DNA of 64,000 nucleotides, from positions 32,001 to 96,000 of the IMG/VR virus record IMGVR_UViG_3300037140_000076. One strand, 5' to 3'. Within the stretch, counting starts at the first letter, position 1. Every line of letters starts with the position of its first letter. The position numbers and the translations under genes were made by a program. This DNA is from a virus. This document shows positions 42,952 through 58,230 of this stretch, in pieces. The notes beneath the pieces were generated by a model that saw only the letters and a program-made list of their open reading frames with translations, was not told the origin of the DNA and did no database searches.

Positions 42952-42969
42952 TAGTCTAAATGATTTTTT

Positions 42970-43116: not shown

Positions 43117-43147
43117 TCAAATGGGTGGAGACGCTTAAAATATTACA

Positions 43148-43282
43148 ATGCAACAATTTACAATGATAGTGGATAATAGAATTAATGCCGGAGGCGAAAA
43201 TCGTCTTTCAGGGATTCTATTGTAACATCATTAATAATATGTTAAACCTTTAGAACCCTGGATAATAAATCCAGGGTTTTTT
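43148..43282 (+). promoter_or_regulatory. attenuator-like leader 1 (leader ORF, antiterminator, terminator) before tRNA array 1
   Basis: ORF MQQFTMIVDNKN; CAGGGATTCTA (43209) can pair with TAGAACCCTG (43251); terminator AACCCTGGAT-aataa-ATCCAGGGTT-TTTT. Confidence 0.65.
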
Positions 43283-43287
43283 ATTTT

Positions 43288-43359
43288 AGACAATTAGCTC
43301 ATCGGGAGAGCGGAGCCTTTACACGGCTTGCGTAGAGGGTTCAATTCCTTCATTGTCTA
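43288..43359 (+). tRNA. tRNA-Val(TAC)
   Basis: cloverleaf; anticodon arm GAGCC-TTTACAC-GGCTT. Confidence 0.9.
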
Positions 43360-43415
43360 CATAATGACCGTTATAACGGACATTCTCCCCAGGAAATGAC
43401 CGCTATAACAAACAT

Positions 43416-43486
43416 TTTCCTCTCGTTCAATGGAAGGACGACTGCCTTCTAAGCAGTGAATAAGTGTTCGACTCACTTGGGGAAAA
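43416..43486 (+). tRNA. tRNA-Arg(TCT)
   Basis: ACTGC-CTTCTAA-GCAGT; T-loop TTCGACT. Confidence 0.9.
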
Positions 43487-43491
43487 CATAA

Positions 43492-43565
43492 GGCTTGTTA
43501 GCTCAGTGGCCCAGAGCGGGACTTTGTTAAAGTTCGGGTCCTTGGTTCGAATCCAAGACGAGCCT
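43492..43565 (+). tRNA. tRNA-Asn(GTT)
   Basis: GGACT-TTGTTAA-AGTTC; T-loop TTCGAAT. Confidence 0.9.
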
Positions 43566-43612
43566 CAAAATTAATTTGGATATGTCACAAACTTTATGTA
43601 TATTGTGTCATA

Positions 43613-44014
43613 ATGAAAATTTGTACACGATGTAAAGATAAAAAAGAACTATCTGAGTTCTATAAAAGTCCAGGCAGTAAGGATGGTTATCGCATTTATT
43701 GTAAAACATGTTATAGTAAGTTACGAAAGAGGACATATAATTTTCAAAAAGCAAAGAAATTATTTTTAAAAAGTAAATACAAAATAACTTTAGAAGAATT
43801 GGAAGTTTTATTTTTAAAACAAAAGAAAAAATGTGCTATTTGTAATGAACCAAATGAAGAAGTGTCTACTAGAAGTGGGTTACATATAGACCATGATCAT
43901 GTTACAGGAAAAGTCAGAGGTTTACTTTGTAAAAACTGTAATCAATTGATAGGCAATGCTAAAGATAATATAAATATTTTAGAAAATAGTATAAAATATT
44001 TATTATGTTCTTAA
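43613..44014 (+). CDS. endonuclease VII-family homing endonuclease
   Basis: CTRC...CKTC N-terminus; Q...CAIC...LHIDHDH.TGKVRGLLC..CN..IG. Confidence 0.9.
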   Translation: MKICTRCKDKKELSEFYKSPGSKDGYRIYCKTCYSKLRKRTYNFQKAKKLFLKSKYKITLEELEVLFLKQKKKCAICNEPNEEVSTRSGLHIDHDHVTGKVRGLLCKNCNQLIGNAKDNINILENSIKYLLCS

Positions 44015-44811
44015 CATTCACAGAAGAAGGGCATTCGTATGAGTCAATTCCAGCCGTTTCCTGGACTTCTGTGACTAAATTAATAGAAAGCTACTGCAAT
44101 CCTTTTGATGAGGAGGATCAAGCTCTGAGGAGTTCACAGAATATGAATTCAAAATGGTTTGGGATGGACCCAGTGGAGATTATCAAACTCTGGAAGGCTG
44201 AAAACCTTCGTTCCACTGATGCCGGAACCTGGGTCCACAACAAATGGGAAAAAAATGTTAGCTCTTTAAAGCACAAAGAGTGGGAAGGAAAGAAATTAAA
44301 AGTTTTTCCTGGAAAATGGGAAGGAGAAACTAAAATTGCACCGGCCCAGGAACTTGAAGAAGGGGTTTACCCTGAACATATTATATATAATGAAAATCTT
44401 CAGGTGTGTGGACAGGCTGATATTGTTAATGTTAGGGATGGTTTTGTAGATGTAATTGATTATAAGACTAGTAAGGAGATTGAGGACCACTCTTATGGAT
44501 TCAAGTATGGAAATGCGAGTATGATGTTGGAACCGGTGAACCATTTAGAGGATTGCAACCTTTCTCATTATGTTCTTCAGCTTGGTATCTATATGAGGCT
44601 CATCCTGTTAAAGAATCCGGCTCTGAAACCTGGTAAACTGATCCTCATTCATGTAAAAATGGATATTAATGAGCTTGATCAATATGGATTTCCTATCCTA
44701 AAAAGGACAAAAGAAAACGGATATAAAATTAAAAGAACAAAAAATTATAATATAAAATACATTGAGAATGAAGTTCGTAGTGTATTAAAAGATCATTATT
44801 TAAAATTGTAG
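44005..44811 (+). CDS. PD-(D/E)XK (Cas4-like) exonuclease
   Basis: GTWVH, CGQAD, IDYKTS, Y.LQLGIY. Confidence 0.85.
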   Translation: MFLTFTEEGHSYESIPAVSWTSVTKLIESYCNPFDEEDQALRSSQNMNSKWFGMDPVEIIKLWKAENLRSTDAGTWVHNKWEKNVSSLKHKEWEGKKLKVFPGKWEGETKIAPAQELEEGVYPEHIIYNENLQVCGQADIVNVRDGFVDVIDYKTSKEIEDHSYGFKYGNASMMLEPVNHLEDCNLSHYVLQLGIYMRLILLKNPALKPGKLILIHVKMDINELDQYGFPILKRTKENGYKIKRTKNYNIKYIENEVRSVLKDHYLKL

Positions 44812-44956
44812 GGTGGCGAAATTGGCAGACGCAACCGCTTGTCTCGCGGTCGTGGATAAGGAAATAGATAGTAGATAGACGGTTGACCAGCAATGAATTA
44901 ACTTCTTTTGTCTCCTGTTGAATCCCCACTTAATGGTTCGAATCCATTTTCTACAG
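44807..44956 (+). ncRNA. tRNA-like RNA (GTC loop) with a ~88-nt variable arm
   Basis: acceptor TGTAGGG/TTCTACA-G, D-arm GCG-AAATTGGCAGA-CGC, ACCGC-TTGTCTC-GCGGT, T-arm AATGG-TTCGAAT-CCATT. Confidence 0.65.
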
Positions 44957-45076
44957 CAATTGATCAGTATGTTGCAGATAGAATCTGATCTGGCCCTACG
45001 CACTGCAAAGCGTTGAGGGAGCGCGTCCGGGATAAGTAGACCTGGTAAGACTACGCTAGGAAAAAGTCTTTTATAT

Positions 45077-45151
45077 TGCGGGATAGAGTAAATGGATAAC
45101 TCGAAGGTCTCATAAGCCTTGTCTATGTCGGATCGTACCCGGCTCCCGCAA
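45077..45151 (+). tRNA. tRNA-Met(CAT) (initiator-like; Ile2 not excluded)
   Basis: TGCGGGA/TCCCGCA; AAGGT-CTCATAA-GCCTT. Confidence 0.8.
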
Positions 45152-45262
45152 CGGTGGTGTCTTGAACGTAGTCCTGGGAAACAACAAGGGAAGTACAACT
45201 AACGGGTTACTGAAAGGGCTTTGTAGTTCAAGAATTAAACAGGTAAAGCTGGCCGCTACTTT

Positions 45263-45336
45263 GCGCCATACGCATTCCGGTAGTGTGCCTGGCTTCCAAC
45301 CAGGATGAGTCGGTTCGATTCCGACATGACGCACCA
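45263..45336 (+). tRNA. tRNA-Gly(TCC)
   Basis: CCTGG-CTTCCAA-CCAGG; encoded CCA. Confidence 0.88.
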
Positions 45337-45416
45337 GGACAAGACGGAGGTTCGAATCCTCCCGGCTATGTATCCGTAATTGGGTGACGCAGTAGTTTAG
45401 TGGTTAGAATATGTCC
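45337..45416 (+). ncRNA. circularly permuted tRNA-like RNA (T-arm, closed acceptor, D-arm)
   Basis: GGACA...GGAGG-TTCGAAT-CCTCC...hairpin...TAGTTTAGTGGTTAGAAT-A-TGTCC. Confidence 0.55.
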
Positions 45417-45419
45417 AAT

Positions 45420-45491
45420 GCTCCTTTCGTCTACTGGCTAGGACATCACTCTTTCCAAGTGATTAAGACAGATCGAAACTGTCAGGGAGTA
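45420..45491 (+). tRNA. tRNA-Glu(TTC)
   Basis: TCACT-CTTTCCA-AGTGA. Confidence 0.82.
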
Positions 45492-45497
45492 CAATAT

Positions 45498-45572
45498 GGT
45501 ACATTAGGGGAGTCCGGAGTCCCTGCCTCACTGTCTATGAGGAGATCATCGGTTCAAATCCGATATGTACTG
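45498..45572 (+). tRNA. tRNA-Asp(GTC)
   Basis: CCTCA-CTGTCTA-TGAGG; discriminator G. Confidence 0.88.
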
Positions 45573-45629
45573 CAAGATGGAACGTTTAGTACGTCTGAAC
45601 ACGAAATAATGGTTCCCCATCTTTTCTAT

Positions 45630-45704
45630 ATTCGGATAACTCAGTCTGGTCAGAGGGCGACTCTTATAAGGTCGCAGTCAGTGGTTCAAATCCACTTCCG
45701 AATA
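45630..45704 (+). tRNA. tRNA-Ile(TAT)
   Basis: CGACT-CTTATAA-GGTCG. Confidence 0.85.
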
Positions 45705-45776
45705 CTGGTTCGTATAAAGGCACGAATTGTTCGAAAGATTCGTGTAAATACGTAATTTGCAAATTGCAAATTATAC

Positions 45777-45850
45777 TGACCTATGGCGCAGCTTGGTAGC
45801 GCAGCACTCTGATAAGGTGAAGGTCCCTGGTTCAAATCCAGGTGGGTCAA
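45777..45850 (+). tRNA. tRNA-Ile(GAT)
   Basis: GCACT-CTGATAA-GGTGA; canonical D- and T-arms. Confidence 0.9.
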
Positions 45851-45893
45851 CTCTGTTCATATTTTTTCTCTGTTCACGAAAAGTGAACAACCT

Positions 45894-45964
45894 GGGCCAG
45901 ATCCCGAAGGCAGGGCATCTCGCTTGCACCGAGAATGAAGCGGGTTCGATTCCCCATGTGTCCA
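45894..45964 (+). tRNA. tRNA-Ala(TGC), irregular acceptor stem
   Basis: TCTCG-CTTGCAC-CGAGA; G3:U70 present. Confidence 0.7.
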
Positions 45965-46035
45965 CTTTTTTCCCAAATTTGGAAATGTGAAAAATTTTCA
46001 CTATATTGAATTCTTCACATCCAAATTTAAATAAT

Positions 46036-46533
46036 ATGTTAAAGTTCATCCTAGACAACCCAGAGAAGACACTTTTCGGTAAGATTAGAAACATTGGTTT
46101 TGTATTTGCACTGGAATTAATTTACTTAAGTATCATTGTTTTTTTATTGAAACAACTAGATCCCTTTGATCTATATACTCTTATGCATCAATATAGTTTA
46201 CCACATGTTATAGACGCTAATGCTATTGGGATATTTTTCTTTGCTTGTATTTGGGCACCCCTATGGGAAGAAGCGGCTTTCAGGTATGCTCCTATAACGA
46301 TTGCCAAGAACTTTGGACCTCAATTTTTGTTCCCGGTTATAATAATTAGTAGTGTTTTATTTGGTTGGGGTCATGGATCTGGACCTGTTAGTCTTCTTAT
46401 TCAGGGAGTTGGGGGATTCTTGTTTTCCCTGCTTTATATTAAAAATGGTTTTAGTTATAAATCTTCAGTAACTGCCCACTTCCTTTGGAACCTTTCTCTT
46501 ATGTTCCTCCTTCCTGTTTTAATAGCAAATTAA
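46036..46533 (+). CDS. CPBP (CAAX/Abi) family intramembrane metalloprotease
   Basis: APLWEEAAFR, FGWGH, HFLWN; multiple TM segments. Confidence 0.88.
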   Translation: MLKFILDNPEKTLFGKIRNIGFVFALELIYLSIIVFLLKQLDPFDLYTLMHQYSLPHVIDANAIGIFFFACIWAPLWEEAAFRYAPITIAKNFGPQFLFPVIIISSVLFGWGHGSGPVSLLIQGVGGFLFSLLYIKNGFSYKSSVTAHFLWNLSLMFLLPVLIAN

Positions 46534-46584
46534 ATTTTGTAATATCAATTCTTTTAAGTACTTTAGGGTCATAATTTAGTTATT

Positions 46585-47364
46585 ATGGCCCTAATTGCTA
46601 TGGCGGTATACTCAACTGAGGAGAACGGAAAAAATGAATATCTGGATAAAACTCTTCAATCATTGGAAGAGACTGTAGATTTTACTAAACATCGTCTAAT
46701 TCTATCTGTTAATGCTTATACAGCAGAAACTCTTTTGATATTCAGAAGATTTAAAGGCATGTTTGAATTGATTTTCAATAAAGAAAATCTTGGAACCGCT
46801 GAAGCAATTAACCTTGCTTGGAAAGATCAATGGCCGGGAGAAAATCTCATTAAGATGGATGATGATGTTGTCATAAATGTTAATGGATGGGTTGATCGCA
46901 TGGAAGAAGCTATTCAGAGAGATCCAACGATAGGTCAATGTGGTCTAAAAAGAAGAGATTGTACAGAAACTCCCTGGAATCCCGACCCCTTTTATAAATC
47001 AAAACTTGAAATGCTTCCTCACTCCCCCGGTGAGAAATGGATTGTAGTAGAAGAAGTATCTCACGTTATGGGGACTTGTGTCATGCACTCTGCTGCACTA
47101 CTTCACAAAGTAGGATACCTTTATCAACCAAAACTTTATGGATTTGATGATTCGTTTATGAGTCTTCGGTCCCGAATTGCGGGATTTAGAAATGTATTTT
47201 TGCCTGGTATAGATATTGAGCATATTGATAGAGGAGATACCGGGTTTCAAAAATGGAAAGAGAAACATGCTGGAGAGTGTTGGCAAGAATATATGCAAGT
47301 GGTAAGAGATTATACATCAGGTAAAAAAAGCGTTTATTATAATCCATTCGAAAATGATAAATGA
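46585..47364 (+). CDS. glycosyltransferase family 2
   Basis: NLGTAEAIN, KMDDDV, YGFDD...R...GF.N...IEH. Confidence 0.85.
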   Translation: MALIAMAVYSTEENGKNEYLDKTLQSLEETVDFTKHRLILSVNAYTAETLLIFRRFKGMFELIFNKENLGTAEAINLAWKDQWPGENLIKMDDDVVINVNGWVDRMEEAIQRDPTIGQCGLKRRDCTETPWNPDPFYKSKLEMLPHSPGEKWIVVEEVSHVMGTCVMHSAALLHKVGYLYQPKLYGFDDSFMSLRSRIAGFRNVFLPGIDIEHIDRGDTGFQKWKEKHAGECWQEYMQVVRDYTSGKKSVYYNPFENDK

Positions 47365-48058
47365 TACAATAGTTCTTACTGCAATATATCATGAGTTTTG
47401 GGGAACAGAACAGTTTAGAAAATCTGTTGAGAGAGTAGGTCTGGATGTTTATAATGTATTTCCTGAAAACACCCCATATAGAGGAAACGGTTTTATTTAT
47501 CAATACTTTTACAAAGCCTTTTTAGATCTTAAAGATAAATATAAAACAGTTATTTATTCGGATGGAGCAGATACAGTTTTTCAAAAAGCATTTGTACCAC
47601 CAACTGATAGAATAATTTATTCTGTTGAAAAAGCAATATGGCCTCCTGCCGAACGCTTCCCACATCTTAAAGTTCTTTATGATAACTATTATAACAAACA
47701 CTGGCGTAGAAATGATTGGCCTTGGAAATATTTGAATGGGGGAAACTGGTGTGGTCCCATTCATCTATTAATTGAATGGTATGAACGATACGGATTGAAA
47801 GATTTGACAGGAGATATAAATGGTCAGAGAGAGCAAGCCGAAGCTTTTATGAAAGCAGATGCAGATGGTTTTCCAATTAAGTTCGATCATAATTGCGAAT
47901 ATTTTCAGACAACAGGTTTTGAAAATCAAGGAGATTTCAGTTTAGCGGAAGATGGAAAATCAATTATAAATAATTTAACAGGGACGATTCCTTGCGTTCT
48001 TCATGGGAACGGGCGAACTCCGATGAATGCCATATATAATAGATATAACGTACAATAA
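47354..48058 (+). CDS. PLOD/LH3-type glycosyltransferase domain protein
   Basis: YSDGADTVF, EKAIWP, YLNGG..G, D..CEYFQT, PCVLHGNG. Confidence 0.75.
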   Translation: MINDTIVLTAIYHEFWGTEQFRKSVERVGLDVYNVFPENTPYRGNGFIYQYFYKAFLDLKDKYKTVIYSDGADTVFQKAFVPPTDRIIYSVEKAIWPPAERFPHLKVLYDNYYNKHWRRNDWPWKYLNGGNWCGPIHLLIEWYERYGLKDLTGDINGQREQAEAFMKADADGFPIKFDHNCEYFQTTGFENQGDFSLAEDGKSIINNLTGTIPCVLHGNGRTPMNAIYNRYNVQ

Positions 48059-48059
48059 A

Positions 48060-49115
48060 ATGACGAACAAAGAAAAAGCAAAACGACAAAGAGACCGAAG
48101 AAAAACCTATTCATTGTCAAAAAGAAAAAAAATAGCAAAGCAGGTGAAGGCGTATGCCGAAGCAAATAAAGAAAGACTTTCTTTTTTAAAAGCAGAAATG
48201 TATAGAATAAATAGAGAGTATATTTTACACTTCAAAGCAACACATCCTTGTGTAATTTGTGGACAGACTGATCCTTTCGTTTTAGACTTTGACCATTTAG
48301 ATCCTTCTAAAAAGGAAGCAACGGTTGCAAATATGTTAGGTAGAACAGCTTCTCTAGAAAAAATAAAAAAAGAGATAGCCAAATGCCAGATATTGTGTGC
48401 TAATTGTCATAGAAGAAAACATTTTTATGAAAAGAACAAATACAATTTTAAACAAAATATTGTTTTAATCGGAGGCGGTAATCATGTTCAGTACTGTATT
48501 GATATAATTAAAAAACAAAACAAATACAATATTGTCGGTATCATTGATTCAGTTAAAGATATTGGAGAAATTGTATACGATTATCCTGTCATAGGAAGAC
48601 AAAAAAATATTGTTGAACTTTCAAAACAATATGGGTTTGAAAGTGGTATAATTACTGTTGGAGATAATTGGGCAAGATATAAAATATATGGAGATATTAT
48701 TGAGGCTTATCCATCATTTATGTTTGTAAACGCAATTCATCCTTCAGTATTAATAGGCAATAATGTAAAGATAGGTAAAGGAGTAATAGCAATGGCGGGT
48801 GTAATATTTAATCCTGGAGCAAATATTGGAGATTTTACTTTCTTTGCAACAGGTGCGCAAGTAGAACACGATTGTATAATAGAACATTTTGCAAGTGTAT
48901 CAGCGGGGTCTATTCTTGGTGGTCATGTTCATATAAAAGAGTTTGCTGCTATTACTCTAGGGGTAACAATAATTGATCGTCTTACTATTGGATGGAATAC
49001 AGTAATTGGATCAGGGTCTCTTGTAACAAAAGATATAGATGATAATGTGTTGGCATATGGAAGCCCTGCGAAAGTAATAAGAATAAGACAACAAGGAGAA
49101 AGATTTTTAAAATAA
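48060..49115 (+). CDS. HNH domain fused to a NeuD/PglD-family sugar acetyltransferase
   Basis: N-terminal CVICG..D..VLDFDH...CANCHRR; C-terminal IGGGNH, AIHPS, hexapeptide repeats, GSPAK. Confidence 0.85.
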   Translation: MTNKEKAKRQRDRRKTYSLSKRKKIAKQVKAYAEANKERLSFLKAEMYRINREYILHFKATHPCVICGQTDPFVLDFDHLDPSKKEATVANMLGRTASLEKIKKEIAKCQILCANCHRRKHFYEKNKYNFKQNIVLIGGGNHVQYCIDIIKKQNKYNIVGIIDSVKDIGEIVYDYPVIGRQKNIVELSKQYGFESGIITVGDNWARYKIYGDIIEAYPSFMFVNAIHPSVLIGNNVKIGKGVIAMAGVIFNPGANIGDFTFFATGAQVEHDCIIEHFASVSAGSILGGHVHIKEFAAITLGVTIIDRLTIGWNTVIGSGSLVTKDIDDNVLAYGSPAKVIRIRQQGERFLK

Positions 49116-49120
49116 TAAAT

Positions 49121-49912
49121 ATGTCACCATCCCACGCAATAGAATTAAACCATAGAGGTTATACTATTATACCAAATTTGATACCGCCTATTATTGTTGA
49201 TGGATTGAGATATGCGTTGAACTTTTCATTTGATAAACACAGACAGATACAAATTGATAATAATAATGATATAGTTACGGAAGGCGTTGCTCTACATGTT
49301 TTATTAGATAATAGAAGATTTATTGAATTCTTACAATATCTTATGTTTGATATTAAGTTGTATTCCTTTCTGGAAGAAAATTATTTTAAATCAAAATTCA
49401 TATTGAATTCGATGAGTGGCTTGAATAACTTACCAAACCAACCAAACTTTTCGTCCATAGTTCACCGTGATTTGAGATTTTATACTGGCGAAATACCAGT
49501 CATGATAAATGCCCTTGTGATGGTTGACGAATTCACTGAAGATAATGGTCCCACCTTGTTATTACCATATTCTCATATTGATTTCGAAGAAAAACCAACC
49601 AATGAATACTTTCGAAGAAGTTCAGTGAAAGCTCTCGGTGAAGCCGGTAGTGTTTTATTATTTAATGCAAACGTTTGGCACGCATCTAGCTTAAATACTT
49701 CTCGTAACGGAAGAAGAGCATTACCAATAACATTCACTAAATCACTTATAAAGCAGTTATTGGATTATCCCAGGGCTTTAGGATACGATAGAATGGAAAG
49801 CTTTAGCGAACCAATGCAACAGCTTCTTGGGTATCATGCCCGTGTACCAGCCAACTTAGATGAATGGTATCAACCTTTTGATAAACGATTTTATAAAAAA
49901 AACCAAGATTAA
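49121..49912 (+). CDS. PhyH-family Fe(II)/2-oxoglutarate dioxygenase
   Basis: GY.II.N, HRD, DEFT.DNGPT.LLPYSH, GSVLLF...WH....N.S...RR. Confidence 0.88.
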   Translation: MSPSHAIELNHRGYTIIPNLIPPIIVDGLRYALNFSFDKHRQIQIDNNNDIVTEGVALHVLLDNRRFIEFLQYLMFDIKLYSFLEENYFKSKFILNSMSGLNNLPNQPNFSSIVHRDLRFYTGEIPVMINALVMVDEFTEDNGPTLLLPYSHIDFEEKPTNEYFRRSSVKALGEAGSVLLFNANVWHASSLNTSRNGRRALPITFTKSLIKQLLDYPRALGYDRMESFSEPMQQLLGYHARVPANLDEWYQPFDKRFYKKNQD

Positions 49913-50170
49913 AATAAACCATATGCCAATATTAATTTCTCGAAAACAGAATATAGTTCGATCATATACTTTTGAACTTAATCCAATAGAAACTCAAAAA
50001 TTTGAAGATGAGATTTTGAGTAATTTTTGGGATGCAACCAAAATTCCTGAAGACGAAAGAGCAGAGTTCAAAGTAACGTATACTATAGATTTTTATAAAA
50101 AACCAGTAGAAGAAGAACCCCAACCCCAGGATGGGTCACATATTATACTAGGATTACCTTCTATCTAATA

Positions 50171-50340
50171 TTTGGTAATTTCAATTATTTTACATATATT
50201 TGTTTTATGAAACATATCAATTCATATTATTCACTGAGTCTACTCTTATCGTCTTACGATACGGACCTGGGATAATATTGAATTAACCGAACTGATTCGG
50301 AAAAGTTATTACCCTGGGATTTTTATCCTGGGGTTTTTTG
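50171..50340 (+). promoter_or_regulatory. promoter plus attenuator leader 2 before the Leu/Ser/Tyr tRNA array
   Basis: TTTG-N20-TATATTTG; leader ORF 50207-50275; terminator ACCCTGGGAT-tttt-ATCCTGGGGT-TTTTT (50311-50339). Confidence 0.8.
50207..50275 (+). CDS. leader peptide MKHINSYYSLSLLLSSYDTDLG
   Basis: 12 consecutive Ser/Tyr/Leu codons matching the downstream tRNAs. Confidence 0.75.
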   Translation: MKHINSYYSLSLLLSSYDTDLG

Positions 50341-50344
50341 TTTT

Positions 50345-50418
50345 AGGGATGTGCTGCAATTGGTAGATAGCTACGCCTCAAAAGCGCATGTGTGTGGGTT
50401 CGAATCCCTCCTTCCCTA
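50345..50418 (+). tRNA. tRNA-Leu(CAA), short variable region
   Basis: TACGC-CTCAAAA-GCGCA; T-loop TTCGAAT. Confidence 0.78.
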
Positions 50419-50447
50419 CTAAAAGCGTTACTAACGCTTTTCAGTAT

Positions 50448-50527
50448 ACCTTCGTGACTTATACGAAATGGCACAGTTACCGGTCTTAGAAACCGGGTCC
50501 TTGTGGGTTCGACTCCCACCGAAGGTA
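50448..50527 (+). tRNA. tRNA-Leu(TAG)
   Basis: CCGGT-CTTAGAA-ACCGG; ACCTTCG/CGAAGGT. Confidence 0.82.
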
Positions 50528-50564
50528 CAATGTTTCCCTTATTAATGAGGTAAACAATTTATAA

Positions 50565-50644
50565 CCCTCTGTGGCTTATAGAAATAGGTACACTTAACCG
50601 ACTTAAAATCGGAGCTTGTCATGGTTCGAATCCATGCAGGGGGA
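50565..50644 (+). tRNA. tRNA-Leu(TAA), weak D-arm
   Basis: CCGA-CTTAAAA-TCGG; CATGG-TTCGAAT-CCATG. Confidence 0.75.
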
Positions 50645-50649
50645 CATAC

Positions 50650-50736
50650 GGAAGGCCCCAGTTGACTGAGGTACACGGTCCTGAACACCGCTAGGAGGCT
50701 AATACCCTTGTAAGAGTTGGACTCTCTTGCTTTCCG
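50650..50736 (+). tRNA. tRNA-Ser(TGA)
   Basis: GGAAGGC/GCTTTCC-G; CGGT-CCTGAAC-ACCG; long variable arm. Confidence 0.78.
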
Positions 50737-50854
50737 CTTTATATCTTTTAACATATAAAATCAGTAATATATTACCGATTATATCTAATAACGTATAATA
50801 AGGTAGAATATTTTGCAACAATCGGCAATTTATTACCGATTTTGCCGAAAGTTT

Positions 50855-50938
50855 GGAAAGTTAATTAGCAAGAGCTAACCCTCCCCGCTAAGGAGTGGGA
50901 CCGGGAAACTGGTTGTGGTTCGTGTCCACAACTTTCCG
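50855..50938 (+). tRNA. tRNA-Ser(GCT)
   Basis: GGAAAGT/ACTTTCC-G; CTCC-CCGCTAA-GGAG; long variable arm. Confidence 0.8.
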
Positions 50939-50986
50939 CAAGAGGAAACATTTGGAAGTTTCCTCTTTATTTCGTATGTTTGTAAA

Positions 50987-51433
50987 ATGAAAAAGATATG
51001 TTCAAAATGCAATATTGAAAAAGAAGTACAAGATTTCAATAAACGCACAAACAGTAAAGACGGATATGATCCAAGATGTAGAACTTGTACAAAAGAACGA
51101 GATGTTTTAAGATATACTAAAAATCCCAAACTTTTTAAAGAAAGGGCAAAAGTTAAAAACACTTTTATAAGAGATAGAAACAGACAATTTTTAATTGAAT
51201 ATTTAATTGATAAATCATGTATTGATTGTGGAGAAACCGATGCTGTTGTATTGGAGTTCGATCATATAGAACCTTCAACAAAAATTGATTGTATTTCAGA
51301 AATGATTCCACGATCAAGTATTGAAAATATTAAAACTGAATTAAATAAATGTGAAATAAGATGTGCAAATTGTCATAGAAGAAAAACAGCTAAACAATTT
51401 GGCTGGAAAAGAAAACACCTGGAATTATGTTAA
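50987..51433 (+). CDS. HNH homing endonuclease
   Basis: CSKC...CRTC; CIDCGE...LEFDH...CANCHRRKT; own promoter at 50951-50982; start moved to MKKIC. Confidence 0.88.
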   Translation: MKKICSKCNIEKEVQDFNKRTNSKDGYDPRCRTCTKERDVLRYTKNPKLFKERAKVKNTFIRDRNRQFLIEYLIDKSCIDCGETDAVVLEFDHIEPSTKIDCISEMIPRSSIENIKTELNKCEIRCANCHRRKTAKQFGWKRKHLELC

Positions 51434-51457
51434 GATTAGATAAAACTTTACTCTTAT

Positions 51458-51528
51458 TGATTGAATACCAGGGCAGTAGGCACTGTCTGTAAAACAGAGG
51501 CACGTAGGTTCGAGTCCTACTCAGTCAA
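51458..51528 (+). tRNA. tRNA-Tyr(GTA), short variable region
   Basis: CTGT-CTGTAAA-ACAG; GTAGG-TTCGAGT-CCTAC. Confidence 0.75.
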
Positions 51529-51532
51529 CAAA

Positions 51533-51751
51533 TTATAACTGAATTTTGTTATAAATTTGGAAATTTGAAAAAGTATTATTAAGTTTGCAGTTAAGATTAT
51601 GAAACAGACTATCAACACGCGATTTTTTTGGCATCAACCGACCCCTCAAGGTCCAAGGGCTAAAGTTATGCGTGATACAGATATAGGTTAAATAATCTCT
51701 TTTCTGCTTGCAACTTTTCAACCCTTGATTTTTCTAAACCGAGGGTTTTTT
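51533..51751 (+). promoter_or_regulatory. operator, promoter and attenuator leader 3 before the Pro/Thr/Phe/Gln/His/Arg/Trp tRNA array
   Basis: 22-bp palindrome, TTTG-N20-TAAGTTTG, leader ORF 51599-51691, terminator AACCCTTG...CGAGGGTT-TTTT. Confidence 0.8.
51599..51691 (+). CDS. leader peptide MKQTINTRFFWHQPTPQGPRAKVMRDTDIG
   Basis: 11 consecutive codons TRFFWHQPTPQ matching the downstream tRNAs. Confidence 0.75.
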   Translation: MKQTINTRFFWHQPTPQGPRAKVMRDTDIG

Positions 51752-51755
51752 ATTT

Positions 51756-51831
51756 CTAGTAATGGAGGAGTCCGGCCATCCTCGCGTGCCCTGGAAGCAT
51801 GAGAACCCAGGTTCAAATCCTGGTTACTAGA
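51756..51831 (+). tRNA. tRNA-Pro(TGG)
   Basis: CGTGC-CCTGGAA-GCATG. Confidence 0.85.
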
Positions 51832-51836
51832 CAAAT

Positions 51837-51908
51837 TCCTCTTAAGCTTTAATGGTGAAGCTCCAGTTTTGTAAACTGGTGAATGGGGATCGTTACCTCA
51901 AAGAGGAT
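51837..51908 (+). tRNA. tRNA-Thr(TGT)
   Basis: CCAGT-TTTGTAA-ACTGG; atypical T-loop ATCGTTA. Confidence 0.8.
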
Positions 51909-51992
51909 CGAAGCCGGTTACCAAAATGTAAAAAAGCCGCCAGAACGTGTCTGGTTACTTGTTAAGACAAGTTGTAAAAAAGTTTGGGTTAT

Positions 51993-52067
51993 GTGTCTTG
52001 GGCAGGTCTGGTGACATTGCATCCGTTTGAAGAACGGACTAACAAGGTTCGATTCCTTGAGGATACG
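51993..52067 (+). tRNA. tRNA-Phe(GAA)
   Basis: TCCGT-TTGAAGA-ACGGA. Confidence 0.82.
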
Positions 52068-52072
52068 CTTAT

Positions 52073-52144
52073 TCCTGGATCGTATAACGTGTAGTACAGC
52101 CGTCTCTGACACGGTTAGCAATTGTTCGACTCAGTTTCCGGGAA
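52073..52144 (+). tRNA. tRNA-Gln(CTG)
   Basis: GCCGT-CTCTGAC-ACGGT. Confidence 0.82.
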
Positions 52145-52149
52145 CTTAA

Positions 52150-52220
52150 ACCCCTTTAGCATAAAGGTAATGCTGGTGGCCTTGACCCACCAGAAGTTCG
52201 GTCGGTACGAGCAGGGGGTT
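52150..52220 (+). tRNA. tRNA-Gln(TTG)
   Basis: GGTGG-CCTTGAC-CCACC; atypical T-loop GTCGGTA. Confidence 0.75.
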
Positions 52221-52222
52221 CT

Positions 52223-52292
52223 GTGAATCTAGTTCAATGGTAGAACGGCTGGCTGTGAACCAGGCAATTAGGGTTCGATCCCCGGTTTCACA
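52223..52292 (+). tRNA. tRNA-His(GTG)
   Basis: CTGG-CTGTGAA-CCAG; D-arm GTTC-AATGGTA-GAAC. Confidence 0.8.
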
Positions 52293-52338
52293 CAACGCAT
52301 GAATTTTTAATAAAAATTCATGCAAAATATTAACATAA

Positions 52339-52410
52339 CCTCCTTTCGTTCAACGAATAGGACCTCTGGCAACGAACCAGAAAATAAAGGTTTGATTCCT
52401 TTAGGGAGGT
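52339..52410 (+). tRNA. tRNA-Arg(ACG)
   Basis: TCTGG-CAACGAA-CCAGA. Confidence 0.8.
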
Positions 52411-52415
52411 CAATT

Positions 52416-52484
52416 ACGTGCCAGGCTAAGGCAGCCAAGCAAACTCCAAATCTGTAGGAGATAGTTCGATTCTATCGGTGCGTG
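52416..52484 (+). tRNA. tRNA-Trp(CCA)
   Basis: loop CTCCAAA; GATAG-TTCGATT-CTATC; imperfect anticodon stem. Confidence 0.7.
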
Positions 52485-53048
52485 CAAATTATAACAAAAA
52501 GCAATTATAATTACTTTTTGTGATAATATTCACACAAAATTTTGTGATAAATGTTGGAAGTGTCAAAAGTATTGTTTTACTTTGCACCCAACTTTCACCA
52601 GTAAAGGACACGCCACCACGAAAAAACAATGATATGAAGTGGCGCAACTACGTCTTGGCTTTTTTTGGGGGAACCTACGGAGGGGGGCCTCACCCCTCTC
52701 ATATTATTGATTTATAATACGTTAAATGATTACCGGGTAATTTACTGGGCCTGGTAAAGCTTATAATTTGGTTATGTGCTTTGAATTACATATATTTACA
52801 GAGGTAAAAAGCACAAAAAATATAAAAAGAGATTCAAGGGGATCATTTAAGATATTACCATCACAAAAATTCCTATCTGGTTATAATCAAAAAACGTAAT
52901 CTGCGTCCATTTAAAACGTTTAAGCAGATGGCAGTGAATTAGGAAACACTGTTGCCCGGTGGTATAAAAGATGCAATTTATTGCATCTTTTTTTATTTAA
53001 CATAGTCTTAACTTGGTTTTATAATAAAAAACAGTTACATTTGCAAGT

Positions 53049-53396
53049 ATGAGAGCGTTGAAGATAGAAAAAAAGACTGATTCGAAAACTCAACAGATAA
53101 AGCTTGTATTATCAATCATTTGTCTATTGAATAATATTACTCTCTCAGAAACAGATTATATATCTCTTGCTTTTTTTATTCAGTATAAAATGAGCCACAA
53201 AACCGATGATTTGATAATCAAGAGTGGGGTGGTCAAGAACATGGACGTTTTAAGAAACGTTAAAACCAGGTTATGTAAGAAAGGATTTTTAAAAAGAGAT
53301 CCTAAAGAATACAAAACCTATGATTTGAACATGAGTGCGGGGGAGTTTAATTGGGAAGACAATGATATTCGATTAATTATAAAACTCAATAATTGA
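53049..53396 (+). CDS. hypothetical protein, possible winged helix
   Basis: promoter TACATTTG upstream; LRNVKTRLCKKGFL. Confidence 0.65.
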   Translation: MRALKIEKKTDSKTQQIKLVLSIICLLNNITLSETDYISLAFFIQYKMSHKTDDLIIKSGVVKNMDVLRNVKTRLCKKGFLKRDPKEYKTYDLNMSAGEFNWEDNDIRLIIKLNN

Positions 53397-53746
53397 AAAA
53401 TATTGACTATATAATTTTGAAGACCTCCAGGGACATGGATATTCCTAAAGAAAAGGTTAAGATAATAGTGGATACCTATTGGGATGGAGTGTATAAAAAA
53501 CTTTTAAATTTAGATTCTACAACTGTTTTTATAAGGAATGTGGGGCTGATAACAATAAGTAAATTTAAATTAAGAAAGTTTATTTATAAATTTATTGATA
53601 AAATAAGATTTTTAAATAAAGGAGATAATTATTCTGAACAACAAAAACAAAAACTCAATCCTCTTTATATTAAAAAATTGAGGAAAGCTCTTTCTCAAAG
53701 AAACATTATTGCTAAAGACTACGCTAAAAAATTTGGAAACACATGA
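53393..53746 (+). CDS. HU/IHF-like DNA-binding protein
   Basis: I....S....IPKEKVKIIVDTYW...VFIRNVG.I pattern; position upstream of terminase. Confidence 0.5.
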   Translation: MKNIDYIILKTSRDMDIPKEKVKIIVDTYWDGVYKKLLNLDSTTVFIRNVGLITISKFKLRKFIYKFIDKIRFLNKGDNYSEQQKQKLNPLYIKKLRKALSQRNIIAKDYAKKFGNT

Positions 53747-54132
53747 GTTTAAGAAAAACTTTTGGTGAGTATTTGGACATGGTGAAGAATGGTTTTAAAA
53801 ACAAAGATAAGATCATTGAAGCAATGCAGGTCTCTGCTATGATAAAGAACGGGAAGATTGGAAATGGTTTGGAGGTTACTAATGAGGCTGTTGCTGAAAT
53901 ACTTAAAAGGAAAGATATTTGTGCTGAGTGTCCTTTCAATAGTAGAAACACAAATAAAGAAACTTATAAATCTAATTTACCCTGGGAGCATTGTACTCTT
54001 TGTAAATGCAGGATAGGATATGATGATAGCAAAGAATATTGTTTATCTTGTGTATGTGGAGCCGAAGCCTGGAATGAAATGAATCCTGATATGGAACCGA
54101 TGGAAGTGAAATGGACAGCATTTAAAAACTAA
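53743..54132 (+). CDS. Cys-rich Zn-binding phage protein
   Basis: RKDICAECPF...CTLCKC...CLSCVCG. Confidence 0.7.
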   Translation: MSLRKTFGEYLDMVKNGFKNKDKIIEAMQVSAMIKNGKIGNGLEVTNEAVAEILKRKDICAECPFNSRNTNKETYKSNLPWEHCTLCKCRIGYDDSKEYCLSCVCGAEAWNEMNPDMEPMEVKWTAFKN

Positions 54133-55235
54133 AAATAAATATTATGTGCGTAGTTAGTATGGTAGGAGATCATTACTCCGATAAATTTAAGGATGATTGG
54201 TATAAAAGGTTTGTACCTTGGACTCCTCCTTCTACTTCCCCTTATACGCCAAATCCTTTGAGTATACCAACATTTATTCCAATGGCAACAAAGGAAGAGT
54301 TTGATGTTTTAAAGAAAGAAGTTGAAGAAATGAAAAAACTTTTAATTAGAGCAAAGATATACGATGAAAAAAACAATGAACCAGATTGCGAAATAGATGC
54401 CAAGATAGAGCTTCTTAAAAAGTTTGCAGAGTTGGTTGGTATAGACTTAAGTGACATTTTTAAAAAAACAACATGAAAAAAAGCACAAAGATTATTTTAT
54501 TTGTAATATTTCTTGTAAGTATCCTTTTTTATAGTATCTTTGTATCAGCACAAAACCCAATAAAGAAGTTTCATCCTGCGACTTATGAATCTGATAGTGT
54601 TGTTTATGTTCGTGGTGATCAAACTATTTCTGTAAATGATAGCATTGATGTAATTTTTACAGATACTGCAAACTTAATAAGAATTGTTAATATAACTAAA
54701 AAAACAATTCTTAATGTTGAAATAGTACACGCGGTACGTTCAGAAGTTATTGAATCATATAATGAGAAAGGAGAAAAAGAAAATTTAACTGTAGGTTGGT
54801 TTTATTGTTTAGTAAACGATCAAGAGCAAATGGTATTTACAACAATATCTCTTCAAGATGGAGAGATCGCGGGGGTTGGTATAGGCACCGAAACATATTT
54901 TACAGTCATGTCATTAAAAAGAAAGAAACAATACGATAAAAAACTTAAATAAACAGTATGACCACAGAAAGAACGCTTCCAGGTAAGCCTGATAAGCAAA
55001 GAATGCAGACCACACAGCAGATTTTTCATAATCTTCTGGAGATCGTGGAACTTTATCCTCAGTATTCTGTGGCCCAACATGTGGCTGCAATCAGTCGAAG
55101 AAAAAGTTCAACCGGTAAAGATTTATTTCATTGGTCTGATGATGAACTTCTTAAAAAGATCGAAGCTCACAAGACAGAACTCGAAGGAGAAGACATTATG
55201 AATTATGATGATGGTGAAATTGATTAAAATATTTT

Positions 55236-55592
55236 ATGACCATAAAGAAAACGTTTTATATAGACATTTATAGTTGTAATGTGCATGTAACGGCGGCTGA
55301 TGATGTAAGACGATCAATAAATTATTATTTAAAAAAACACGGAGAAAAAATCATAGAGTATGATGTAGAAGGACTTTTTTTCGTTCCTATAGATCAAGTT
55401 TCTGATTATTATTTATTTTTTAATCTTAAAGGTTTAGATGTAAATACTTTGAATCATGAAATATCTCATCTTATTGAAGAAATTTTAATACATCGTCATA
55501 TTAAAGCATCAGGAGAACAGAGAGCGTACTTACACGGATCTACATGTGAAAGAATATATAATTTCTTTAAAAAGAAAAAATGTATTAAATAA
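55236..55592 (+). CDS. HExxH motif protein
   Basis: LNHEISHL...EQRAYL. Confidence 0.6.
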   Translation: MTIKKTFYIDIYSCNVHVTAADDVRRSINYYLKKHGEKIIEYDVEGLFFVPIDQVSDYYLFFNLKGLDVNTLNHEISHLIEEILIHRHIKASGEQRAYLHGSTCERIYNFFKKKKCIK

Positions 55593-55593
55593 C

Positions 55594-55669
55594 GGCCAGG
55601 TACCCAATGCTGGACGCGGGGTTAGTCTGCAAAACTTACTTAACACCAGTTCGATTCTGGTTCTGGTCT
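55594..55669 (+). tRNA. tRNA-Cys(GCA)
   Basis: GGCCAGG/TCTGGTC-T; AGT-CTGCAAA-ACT; ACCAG-TTCGATT-CTGGT. Confidence 0.8.
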
Positions 55670-55681
55670 CAAAAAACAATT

Positions 55682-56125
55682 ATGCCAGCAAAGAAAAAAA
55701 CAAATTTTGTATCTTACGAACTTGCTCGTCTTGATAAATATCTAAAACAACTTACTTCTTATCTTGATGCCCACCCTCCCGATAAAATGGAAGATAGAAT
55801 AGAGTGGATTGAGACTCCCAGAGGTGCAGAAATTCCAAAAGTTATTTCTTCAATAGAAACACAACTCAAAGTGTTTATGTCTACACTGGAAAAACTTCCA
55901 AAACTTTTATCTGACGTTAATAATCTTCGTAAAGAAGTAGAGGGAGGACCAAAAGAAATTGAATTAAGAGGAGGAGCAGAACGCCCAGGATTTATGGATA
56001 ATGATGAACAAACCGGAGATGAATTTGAAGATATTCCAAACGACAAAACACTTCCCCCTTCCACCACAGAAGAAATTAAGGACCCGGAATTTGATGATGA
56101 AACGTACTGGCAGGAGCCTGATTAA
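55682..56125 (+). CDS. hypothetical protein, candidate terminase small subunit
   Basis: starts at MPAKKK after tRNA-Cys; immediately upstream of TerL. Confidence 0.5.
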   Translation: MPAKKKTNFVSYELARLDKYLKQLTSYLDAHPPDKMEDRIEWIETPRGAEIPKVISSIETQLKVFMSTLEKLPKLLSDVNNLRKEVEGGPKEIELRGGAERPGFMDNDEQTGDEFEDIPNDKTLPPSTTEEIKDPEFDDETYWQEPD

Positions 56126-56127
56126 TT

Positions 56128-58230
56128 ATGAGTATAATAACCAGTCCGGAGTTTTTTATTAATATAAAAAAGATACCGGATAAAGCTTCCAAAGAATATC
56201 TGCCCTTCTTCAGGGCAGAAATGAATAAAGTAAAACAGGGTGTAACCATTGCTGGAGTAAGAATTCCAGGATGGTTATATTGGCATATAAACCACTGGGT
56301 AATTGATATAGATGTTCCAGTACAAGGCACAAATATTAATTATGTTGAGCGTAGACCATCACATCCTTTTTTAAGGGATAATGATTGGATTATTGCAGAA
56401 CATATTGAAAGAGCAGAAAGTTTAAAAAAAGGTGTATTACTTCTTGGTACTCGTCAGCTTGGTAAAAGCGAAATAGGAGCTTCTTATAACGGGAGAAGAG
56501 GTATTGCTTTTGAAAATAGTCAAAATGTTATTGCTGGTCTTTCTGATCCGGATTTAAAACTTCTTCTTGGTAAGTTGGATAGAGGGTTTACAAATCTTCA
56601 TCCCTATTTTAAACCAATAAAAATAATAAACGATCCTAAGAAAGAAATTATTCTTGGATATAAAGACCCCCAGGGAGAAAGAGTTAAATATTCTGAATTC
56701 CTAATTCGAAATTTAGATTCAGGAAAGAATACTGAAAACTTAGCGGGTCCTACTACTTCTTCACTTACTTTGGATGAGTGTGGTAAAGGAGATTTCCTTG
56801 AAGCCTTCATTGCTGCTAAACCTGCTCTTGAAACCGCTTATGGTTGGAGAGGTATGCCTTTATTTATAGGGACCTCTGGTAGCTTTGATAAGGCTGAGGA
56901 TCTTCAAAGGTTCCGGGAAAATCTTGACACTTATAATTTTATTGAAGTTGAACTTAAGGATGAAAAAAAACAGGATATATATTTTATTCCAGGTTGGATG
57001 TCATCTCGTGCGAAAAGAAAAAAAATAAGATTATCTACTTATAAAAAAGTACCCAAAGGAAGCGAACTTGATACTATTGCTATTCATGTTGTAGAAAACC
57101 CTGAAGAAGAAATACAAAGAATTTTAGATTATAGAGAGTCATTAAAAGTTGCTGGAGAAATAACATTGATGAAGAAAGAGACAATGTATTATCCTTTAAA
57201 TGAAGAGGAATTATTTTTAATTGATGATAGTGATAATATATTTTCTGATGTAAAAGAAATATGTAAAGCTCATTTACTTTATTTGGAAACAATTGAAGTG
57301 AGTGAAGAATATGGATGGATGACAAGAGACGAAAATGGTAAACCAAAATTCGTTCCAACTAAGAATGCTTTTCCTATTAAAGATTTTCCTGCTGGAGAAC
57401 ATGAAGATAAAGATGCCCCTATTATTATATGGTCCCATCCTATGGAAGGCCAAGAATTCGGGATTTTGCATGTAGGTGGAATTGACCCTTATAACCAGGA
57501 TGAATCATTTTATTCCCCTTCCCTGGGAACCCTATATATTTATCGTAGGACATATGATCCTTTAAAAGGCAATCATCAAGAATCATTTGTTGCTTCATAT
57601 TCTGCTCGTACAAAGACTATATCTAAATGGAGGGAGCAAGTAAGACTTCTTTTAGAATATTACGGAGCTACTGCTTTACCGGAAAATGAAGAGCCGGGTC
57701 TTATTCGTTGGTTTGATGAAAAACATATTGGACATTATCTTGAAGACGGTCTTGATCTAGCAAAGGAAATAAACCCCAATACCACCAGTAATAGAAATAA
57801 AGGATTATCAGCTACTACAGCAAATATAAGATATGGAAATGGTCTTTTAAAATCTCATATTAACGAAGATCTGGTTATGGGCCAGGACCCTTTAAGCGGG
57901 GAGAATATAATAAAGAAAGGAGTAATCCGGATAAAGGATAAGGTTTTATTAAAAGAGGTAATTGCTTATACCCCTGCCATGAGCATTAAAAGTAGGGCAG
58001 GGACCTCTTCAAATGCAAGGACTAAAAAGAAAGCTACCAACGTTGACCGGATTGTAGGGGCAAGACATGCTCTGATCCTGGCAAAATTAAAAGATAAATA
58101 TTTTCCCCTTGCTAAGATAAAGAACCCCCTCTCTACAAATAAGCCTGAAAAAAAGGCTATTAAAAGCCCTTTTACAGGTATAAACAGTCCTTTCGGATCT
58201 CGAAGATTTCCCTTCGGTGGAAAATTATAA
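56128..58230 (+). CDS. terL: terminase large subunit
   Basis: TRQLGKS Walker A, LTLDECGK Walker B, GTSG, GGIDPY nuclease, ENE, NVDRI. Confidence 0.9.
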   Translation: MSIITSPEFFINIKKIPDKASKEYLPFFRAEMNKVKQGVTIAGVRIPGWLYWHINHWVIDIDVPVQGTNINYVERRPSHPFLRDNDWIIAEHIERAESLKKGVLLLGTRQLGKSEIGASYNGRRGIAFENSQNVIAGLSDPDLKLLLGKLDRGFTNLHPYFKPIKIINDPKKEIILGYKDPQGERVKYSEFLIRNLDSGKNTENLAGPTTSSLTLDECGKGDFLEAFIAAKPALETAYGWRGMPLFIGTSGSFDKAEDLQRFRENLDTYNFIEVELKDEKKQDIYFIPGWMSSRAKRKKIRLSTYKKVPKGSELDTIAIHVVENPEEEIQRILDYRESLKVAGEITLMKKETMYYPLNEEELFLIDDSDNIFSDVKEICKAHLLYLETIEVSEEYGWMTRDENGKPKFVPTKNAFPIKDFPAGEHEDKDAPIIIWSHPMEGQEFGILHVGGIDPYNQDESFYSPSLGTLYIYRRTYDPLKGNHQESFVASYSARTKTISKWREQVRLLLEYYGATALPENEEPGLIRWFDEKHIGHYLEDGLDLAKEINPNTTSNRNKGLSATTANIRYGNGLLKSHINEDLVMGQDPLSGENIIKKGVIRIKDKVLLKEVIAYTPAMSIKSRAGTSSNARTKKKATNVDRIVGARHALILAKLKDKYFPLAKIKNPLSTNKPEKKAIKSPFTGINSPFGSRRFPFGGKL

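Follow-up and report, generated by a model that had tools for sequence, protein, structure and literature searches.

What may be the function of a short open reading frame (ORF) filled with serine, tyrosine and leucine codons that stands, together with an intrinsic terminator, directly in front of phage tRNA genes for leucine, serine and tyrosine? This question is raised by an element that we call leader 2, found in a 64,000-nt stretch of viral DNA (positions 32,001 to 96,000 of the IMG/VR record IMGVR_UViG_3300037140_000076), which is referred to below as the window and in which coordinates are counted unless another record is named; features are on the plus strand unless marked otherwise. 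The window is a part of a phage contig of 112,374 bp with 35% G+C. The ORF of leader 2 (50207–50275) starts with ATG and consists of 22 codons plus TAA, and its reading is backed by conservation at the amino acid level in nine relatives. We consider this element to be most probably a ribosome-mediated (leader-peptide) transcription attenuator, by means of which the tRNA array would be transcribed when its Ser, Leu or Tyr codons are decoded slowly, as its sequence anatomy and the folding models suggest.

The codon run of leader 2 and its homologues

The predicted leader peptide begins with Met-Lys-His-Ile-Asn, continues with a run of 12 codons and ends with Asp-Thr-Asp-Leu-Gly before the stop codon. 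The run (codons 6–17, 50222–50257; TCA TAT TAT TCA CTG AGT CTA CTC TTA TCG TCT TAC) specifies Ser, Tyr and Leu only, by means of 10 different codons that cover all five boxes (Ser TCN, Ser AGY, Leu CTN, Leu TTR and Tyr). An initial annotation, made from the sequence alone, had described the same ORF with 12 codons sampling both serine and both leucine boxes, and our re-reading agrees with it exactly. In the long ORFs of this phage no Leu codon is rarer than CTC and no Ser codon is rarer than TCG, yet both recur in the leaders.

It may be argued that such a run is accidental, i.e., that an untranslated short ORF happens to lie between the ordinary terminator of the upstream genes and the tRNA cluster. 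Leu, Ser and Tyr codons are indeed common in AT-rich sequence, making up 0.238 of the six-frame codons of the contig, and low-complexity runs of 9–11 such residues occur elsewhere in it. The 12-residue run of leader 2, with its 10 different codons, is nevertheless the longest stretch composed exclusively of these residues in all six frames of the 112,374-bp contig. In a chance test, the short ATG-started ORFs (12–50 codons) of all fetched loci were scored for a segment in which 10 of 10 codons stood for Leu, Ser or Tyr. Such a segment was present in 6 of 17,553 background ORFs (0.03%) and in 7 of the 173 ORFs located at most 150 nt upstream of a tRNA gene of the same strand (4%), which is a more than 100-fold enrichment at this position. 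All seven of the latter precede Leu/Ser/Tyr arrays, and so do two further pre-tRNA ORFs with scores of 8–9. The run is more than a product of chance. The conservation of the ORF in nine diverged relatives, with synonymous change, and the match of the two other leaders of the window to their own arrays, both considered below, likewise speak against the accidental origin, which we regard as extremely improbable.

The nine homologous leaders belong to L002, L004, L006, L012, L083, L084, L086 (the same as L011), L088 and L150, the last being the cultured Leptolyngbya phage Lbo-JY46 (PP438436; leader at 5391–5471 of that record). The leader of one more relative, L001, is identical to that of the window and is therefore uninformative for comparison. 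The homologous leaders precede Leu/Leu/(Leu)/Ser/(Ser)/Tyr arrays, and their Ser/Tyr/Leu run is kept at the level of amino acids and isoacceptors, not at the level of nucleotides. The codons change synonymously: the first Leu codon is CTG, CTT or CTC, the second one is CTA, TTG or TTA, and the codons of the two serine boxes, TCN and AGY, trade positions in L083 and L150, each leader retaining one of each box. All five codon boxes are present in ten leaders out of ten, for which the naive probability is 0.006, the leaders not being independent, and these five-box leaders match arrays with Ser(TGA) and Ser(GCT) and with Leu(TAG) and Leu(TAA).

Competing helices upstream of the tRNA genes

Between the leader ORF and the tRNA genes of the window, a pattern scan detected an intrinsic terminator (50311–50344) made of a 10-bp hairpin at 50311–50334 with a loop of 4 nt (dG −14.3 kcal/mol) and of the U-tract TTTTTTGTTTT at 50335–50344, which abuts the start of tRNA-Leu(CAA) at 50345. 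Region 1 (50219–50232) is the 5′ strand of a protector helix and pairs with 50272–50285; in the minimum free energy fold of 50203–50344 (z = −3.5 against shuffles) AATTCATATTAT (50219–50230) is paired with ATAATATTGAATT (50272–50284), and both helix 1:2 and the terminator 3:4 are formed in this fold. Region 2 (50265–50278), the 5′ strand of the putative antiterminator, spans the last codons and the stop codon and carries CCTGGGATAATA at 50266–50277. Its partner, region 3 (50307–50320), comprises the 5′ arm of the terminator (50311–50320) with the 4 nt that flank it on the 5′ side, TATTACCCTGG lying at 50307–50317. A small spacer hairpin of 5 bp with a loop of 4 nt is located at 50287–50300. 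The pairings quoted in the initial annotation (CCTGGGATAATA with TATTACCCTGG, and AATTCATATTAT with ATAATATTGAATT) were all recovered at the places it had given, and the 1:2 / 2:3 / 3:4 attenuator geometry that it had proposed holds in the sequence and is backed by the nine relatives in respect of the run, the position of region 2 and the pairing.

An intrinsic terminator separates the leader ORF from the tRNA genes in all nine homologues too, and the stems of these terminators have diverged in sequence between the ten phages. For every phage, the strongest pairing with its own 5′ arm is made by a segment that starts 2–9 nt after the last Ser, Tyr or Leu codon, wherever the stop codon lies. 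The cognate duplexes of region 2 with the arm have a mean of −15.2 kcal/mol versus −10.6 ± 3.4 kcal/mol for the non-cognate ones (permutation p ~1e-4, 10 phages), a p-value that overstates the number of independent events because the related leaders are not phylogenetically independent.

The effect of a ribosome on these structures was computed by masking a 28-nt footprint at each A-site codon, and the folding was evaluated both at equilibrium and as the probability that the 5′ arm of the terminator is engaged by upstream sequence (arm-holding) while the 3′ arm is yet to be synthesised. By the second measure, the 5′ arm in the window is held with P 0.67–0.72 when the A site is at codons 2–16 and with P of about 0.25 from codon 17 on, region 2 being covered once the A site reaches codon 17; without a ribosome P is 0.33, versus approximately 0.70 with the ribosome on codons 2–16. 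A step in arm-holding at the end of the Ser/Tyr/Leu run was observed in 9/9 leaders analysed. The trpL and hisL leaders of E. coli, processed as positive controls with the identical script, gave values of 0.62–0.74 on the Trp or His codons, at most 0.07 beyond them, and 0.30 and 0.00, respectively, without a ribosome. Within the limits of this computation the window leader behaves like trpL. Arm-holding was also compared with that of dinucleotide-shuffled versions of the upstream segment; the real value was the higher one in all nine leaders, the fraction of shuffles that reached it being 0.01–0.13.

Leader composition follows the composition of the array

Leader 2 is one of three such units in the window. 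The leader 1 unit (43148–43282, with the run unit at 43148–43225) lists Met, Ile, Val, Asp, Asn, Arg, Ala, Gly and Glu and stands before an array of Val, Arg, Asn ... Met, Gly, Glu, Asp, Ile, Ile and (Ala) tRNA genes, while the leader 3 unit (51599–51755, with the run unit at 51599–51691) lists Thr, Arg, Phe, Trp, His, Gln and Pro and stands before Pro, Thr, Phe, Gln, Gln, His, Arg and (Trp) genes. Together the three leaders list 19 amino acid types, Arg being listed twice, through different anticodons. A match of leader 1 (43163–43287) to the Rfam 'greA leader' model scored 36.7 bits against a cut-off of 60 and was treated as a chance match.

When the arrays were permuted among 29 non-redundant leader units, the summed best-window match was 139 ± 12.6, compared to 233 observed, and none of 5000 permutations reached 233. 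Altogether 157 of the 168 array amino acid types are present in the array's own leader. The correspondence also holds within genomes, where the leader fits its own array best in six of seven phages; the exception is L002, in which weak hairpins split one array in the automatic parse.

Where tRNA genes have moved between arrays, the leaders have changed with them. In L027, L097 and L028 one array holds Pro, Gln, His, Arg, Leu, (Ser), Tyr and Glu genes, and the leader run contains those residues. The Asp and Asn tRNAs of L088 and L092 are in the third array and the third leader has gained Asp and Asn, and in L083, with Lys and Cys tRNAs in the first array, the first leader has Lys and Cys. The arrangement is not confined to uncultured phages: Cellulophaga phage phi17:2 (L151; NC_021798) has three such leader units, and in one of them a run of Gln, Arg, Leu, His, Glu and Pro precedes Pro, Glu, Gln, His, Leu, Leu and Arg tRNA genes. 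Another of its units is annotated as the hypothetical protein gp077 (39 amino acids; 88442–88561 of the phi17:2 record), which lies between tRNA-Arg and tRNA-Ala genes and in front of a terminator; it lists Thr, Lys, Gly, Ile, Val, Asp, Ala and Arg and precedes Ala, Ile, Gly, Met, Asp, Thr, Val, Arg and Met tRNA genes. Judged by this layout, gp077 is very likely a leader peptide and not a protein gene in the usual sense.

These data bear on the nature of the signal, which may be the amount of the cognate tRNAs or their charging. The same attenuator hardware could respond to the general translational capacity or to amino acid starvation, serving as a gauge of the growth state that times tRNA synthesis in the course of infection and not as a loop that supplies particular tRNAs on demand. 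The leaders of some relatives list up to 12–13 amino acids (the second leader of L097), as might be expected of such a gauge, and an attenuator of the leader-peptide type, which senses the charged tRNA entering the A site, is, as in trp and his, blind to the difference between low tRNA and low charging. A general gauge, however, need not follow its own array, whereas the leaders match their own arrays and not the other arrays of the same genome, follow the tRNA genes that have moved from one array to another, and keep both Ser and both Leu boxes in agreement with the encoded isoacceptors. In our opinion a signal of this general kind is unlikely.

The tRNA array behind leader 2

The array that the initial annotation had read as Leu(CAA), Leu(TAG), Leu(TAA), Ser(TGA), Ser(GCT) and Tyr(GTA) stands, judging by the stems, the anticodon loops and the alignment to homologues, in spite of the fact that default ARAGORN and Rfam call Leu(CAA) and Tyr(GTA) only and miss four tRNAs out of six. 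The first gene, tRNA-Leu(CAA) (50345–50419), is 75 nt long, has a short variable arm and was found by ARAGORN and by the Rfam tRNA model (37.7 bits). The next two are non-canonical, with an enlarged D loop and a short variable arm: tRNA-Leu(TAG) at ~50448–50527 was identified by low-threshold ARAGORN, a manual cloverleaf and homologue alignment, and tRNA-Leu(TAA) at 50565–50644, with the anticodon loop CTTAAAA, aligns to the Leu(TAA) genes of relatives, while low-threshold ARAGORN reads the same segment in another register as Ser(CGA). The tRNA-Ser(TGA) gene (50650–50726), which has a long variable arm, G73 and a T loop that departs from the consensus, was read manually and aligns to the Ser(TGA) genes of L002, L004, L006 and L092; none of the programs used (ARAGORN at default and lowered thresholds, Rfam) calls it, and in view of its T loop this gene may be impaired. 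The tRNA-Ser(GCT) gene (50855–50938), also with a long variable arm and G73, is supported by low-threshold ARAGORN and alignment. Tyr(GTA) (51458–51529; 72 nt, no long variable arm) was called by ARAGORN and obtained 27.4 bits with Rfam, below the cut-off of 29. The four genes missed by default programs were accepted because each has a 7-bp acceptor stem and the expected anticodon in a 7-nt loop and aligns to genes that are called normally in relatives; the T arm is regular in all of them except Ser(TGA). From a practical point of view, the leaders may provide an annotation rule for odd tRNA genes of this kind.

The array is split between Ser(GCT) and Tyr(GTA) by an inserted ORF (50987–51433) of 148 amino acids that has Cys/His motifs of HNH type and no Pfam match and that relatives do not have at this place. 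Directly after tRNA-Ser(GCT) and before this ORF there is a 10-bp hairpin with a weak U-tract (50940–50967), which may end the array transcript early. Nuclease-type ORFs break up or flank the tRNA arrays in three places, at 43613–44014, 48027–49115 and 50987–51433; they represent, respectively, the Endonuclease VII family (Pfam PF02945, 86 bits), an N-terminal HNH motif fused to a PglD-like acetyltransferase, and the Cys/His-rich ORF just described. At these places they are absent from relatives, which would be expected if they were homing elements.

Two other features of the tRNA genes may be mentioned. The tRNA-Leu genes of these phages (50345–50644 in the window, and those of L083, L086, L088 and L150) are 74–80 nt long with a short variable arm, while the Ser tRNAs keep the long arm; the absence of a long arm from leucine tRNAs seems to characterise the clade as a whole. 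Between the called tRNA genes at 44812–45076 and 45337–45419 there are isolated pieces resembling T arms (GGTTCGAATCC) and D arms, one of them in the order of a 3′ half followed by a 5′ half, which may represent tRNA fragments, decay products, or genes that are permuted or contain introns.

The promoter-like element

Leader 2 is preceded by a promoter-like element of the Bacteroidota type (50171–50202), composed of TTTG at 50171–50174, a 20-nt spacer and TATATTTG at 50195–50202, the latter ending 4 nt before the ATG of the leader. TTTG and TATATTTG together agree with the two-box promoters of Bacteroidota. The block recurs ahead of the homologous leaders of L002, L006, L012, L083 and Lbo-JY46. 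Judging by this motif, the transcript probably starts near the ATG and the mRNA is probably leaderless.

In the Lbo-JY46 record (PP438436; 5328–5529 and 6060–6254) the boxes TTTG ... TAnnTTTG precede the leaders as in Bacteroidota-type phages, while the recorded host is cyanobacterial; either the motif is not tied to a particular host or the recorded host should be re-examined. A further promoter-like block, ATTTTGTNATAAA-TTGG followed some 20 nt downstream by a TAnnTTTG-like box, is repeated in the window at 42906–42930, 51544–51567 and 52538–52560. The first of these sites precedes the ORF of a small membrane peptide that lies upstream of leader 1, the second precedes leader 3, and the third is followed by an apparently non-coding segment (52560–53000) with two terminator-like hairpins at its end.

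Evaluation of the attenuator model

Several observations weigh against the attenuator model. In addition to the phylogenetic dependence of the leaders considered above, the equilibrium fold of the window is won by the terminator at every ribosome position (P 0.88–0.97). The antiterminator of the window, the duplex of region 2 with 50307–50319, is worth −11.0 kcal/mol (RNAduplex), which is the weakest value but one of the ten, and for the window alone its advantage over shuffled sequence is not significant (fraction 0.13). Of the nine leaders analysed, three (the window, L012 and L086) have a protector helix 1:2 that acts in the folding model, while in the other six it is not effective. TTG, the codon read by the first tRNA of the array, Leu(CAA), is not in the window leader, and no link between TTG in the leader and the presence of a Leu(CAA) gene was found among the compared leaders. 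Finally, four of the six tRNAs of the array are non-canonical and one of them may be defective, and the inserted ORF together with the hairpin at 50940–50967 may place the Tyr(GTA) gene of this phage beyond the reach of the leader.

The equilibrium result is not counted by us as a refutation, because the established attenuators trpL and hisL gave the same outcome when computed in this way, their terminators also winning at equilibrium (0.92–0.98). Since the terminator wins at every ribosome position, the switch must be a kinetic one. The initial annotation had regarded an antiterminator not competitive in folding as an outcome contrary to its proposal; at equilibrium this outcome was obtained, as for trpL and hisL, while in the measure that takes the order of synthesis into account the antiterminator competes as was expected.

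The thermodynamic dominance of the terminator and the lack of conservation of the protector helix would also be in line with an ORF that acts by being translated without any terminator switch, for example by protection of the RNA from Rho or nucleases, by guidance of processing or through a function of the peptide itself. Some residues, such as Gly and Met, recur near the C-terminal end of the peptide, as a functional peptide might have them, but their recurrence can be attributed to the need of the G-rich region 2 to pair with the C-rich arm of the terminator. A peptide function would not predict a composition that tracks the downstream tRNA genes, and the pairing of region 2 covaries with the divergent terminators and is situated where a ribosome leaving the run would cover it. 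This explanation appears to us highly unlikely.

If leader 2 acts as an attenuator, the following sequence of events may be proposed. Transcription would start at the Bacteroidota-type promoter, a few bases before the ATG, and a ribosome would translate the 22-codon leader while RNA polymerase advances to the terminator. With prompt decoding of the Ser, Leu and Tyr codons, the ribosome would pass codon 16 and cover region 2 (50265–50278), and the hairpin 50311–50334 would then form and the transcript would end at the U-tract just before tRNA-Leu(CAA). Slow decoding of any of the five codon boxes, following from a shortage of charged Ser, Leu or Tyr tRNA, e.g., when the host tRNAs are scarce, degraded or cleaved, would stall the ribosome inside 50222–50257. 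The stalled ribosome would leave region 2 free to pair with the 5′ arm of the terminator as soon as this arm is made; the terminator would be blocked and the polymerase would enter the Leu/Leu/Leu/Ser/Ser, and probably also Tyr, tRNA genes. The new tRNAs would relieve the stall and close a negative feedback loop.

The role of phage tRNA genes is debated: they have been suggested to compensate for codon usage, to replace host tRNAs that have been degraded and to evade defences that cleave tRNAs. A possible, though rather doubtful, extension of the attenuator model is that the leaders constitute a counter-defence device that keeps an array off until the leader senses that a host tRNA of its set has been cleaved or depleted, upon which the phage would replace the missing tRNAs and silence the array again. 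Anticodon nucleases, other tRNA-targeting immunity systems and host shut-off would be the triggers. If this is true, the leader peptides could be read as a roster of the host tRNAs that the phage expects to lose, and the system would amount to a general level of translation homeostasis, not recognised before, that is shared by a large group of phages of the Bacteroidota type.

The phage and its relatives

By its large terminase subunit (TerL; 56128–58227) the contig is tied to a clade of phages that are uncultured. This protein is 98% identical to that of L001 and from 77% to about 35% identical to other metagenome proteins and loci; among named phages, Leptolyngbya phage Lbo-JY46 is the nearest (41%), followed by the Cellulophaga phages phi17:2 and phi4:1 (~29%) and the crAss-like gut phages (~26%). 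A blastn search of 49000–53000 against phage records returned two short tRNA matches only and no close relative. The window contains also a tmRNA gene (28347–28705, minus strand) with a tag peptide of 26 residues, detected by ARAGORN, and a second tRNA-Thr(TGT) gene (29061–29130, minus strand), both on the opposite strand and away from the arrays that follow the leaders.

Comparison with known systems

Leader-peptide attenuators are classical regulators in enterobacteria, where they are exemplified by trpL, hisL, leuL and pheL as well as by the multivalent thrL (Thr and Ile) and ilvGMEDA (Ile, Leu and Val) leaders. With these systems leader 2 shares a short ORF in which the regulatory codons lie, helices 2:3 and 3:4 that exclude each other, an intrinsic terminator ahead of the genes that would be regulated, the placement of region 2 such that a ribosome that has passed the run covers it, and the folding signature found here for trpL and hisL. 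The rare codons CTC and TCG of its run presumably have their counterpart in leuL. Unlike the enterobacterial leaders, the phage leader would control tRNA genes and not biosynthetic enzymes, and therefore its product would feed back directly on the sensor. Its run lists three amino acids via five boxes, and up to 12–13 amino acids are listed in relatives. It is carried by phages, whose genomes have two to three copies of it, one for every tRNA array, and it has a promoter-like element of the Bacteroidota type, probably almost no 5′ untranslated region, and no sequence or Rfam relation to the enterobacterial leaders. In a scan of 42000–57000 no Rfam leader family (Leu, His, Thr, Trp and others) and no T-box model matched 50171–50344 at E values up to 1.

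To our knowledge, all described leader-peptide attenuators regulate enzymes of amino acid biosynthesis or aminoacylation. The pheM leader of E. coli, which controls pheST (phenylalanyl-tRNA synthetase) in response to charged tRNA, resembles the phage leader as an attenuator of a gene of the translation apparatus; it differs in that it acts on a synthetase, senses a single amino acid and is cellular. An attenuator-like leader at the tRNA-Phe genes of E. coli was considered as well and dropped from the comparison, as there is neither a leader ORF nor a terminator upstream of pheV. T-box riboswitches are similar in that a terminator/antiterminator decision reports the state of a particular tRNA, but they bind uncharged tRNA directly and need no ORF, while the phage element is predicted to depend on a translated one.

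In a full-text literature search, in which subscription journals were covered incompletely, no publication that describes the control of tRNA genes by a leader peptide was found. The nearest system in print is an extra tRNA array of Anabaena sp. PCC 7120, the trn operon, which is reported to be silent in standard conditions and turned on under translational stress (PMC8421152, PMC10272220) under the control of a DNA-binding repressor protein, TrcR (PMC10272220). The words 'leader peptide' and 'attenuation' occur in neither PMC8421152 nor PMC10272220. Both the trn operon and the phage array are extra sets of tRNA genes, the former being cellular and repressor-controlled.

From this point of view, the attenuator model, if true, describes a sensor written in the codons of the very tRNAs that it controls, by which phages would supply tRNAs on demand, the demand being named codon by codon. 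The question is directly testable, because the same arrangement is found in cultured phages (the Cellulophaga phage phi17:2 type and Leptolyngbya phage Lbo-JY46). In comparison with trpL, hisL, pheM and their kin, leader-peptide attenuation would be extended from amino acid and synthetase genes to tRNA genes with direct feedback of the product, and to multivalent leaders that list from three to about a dozen amino acids.

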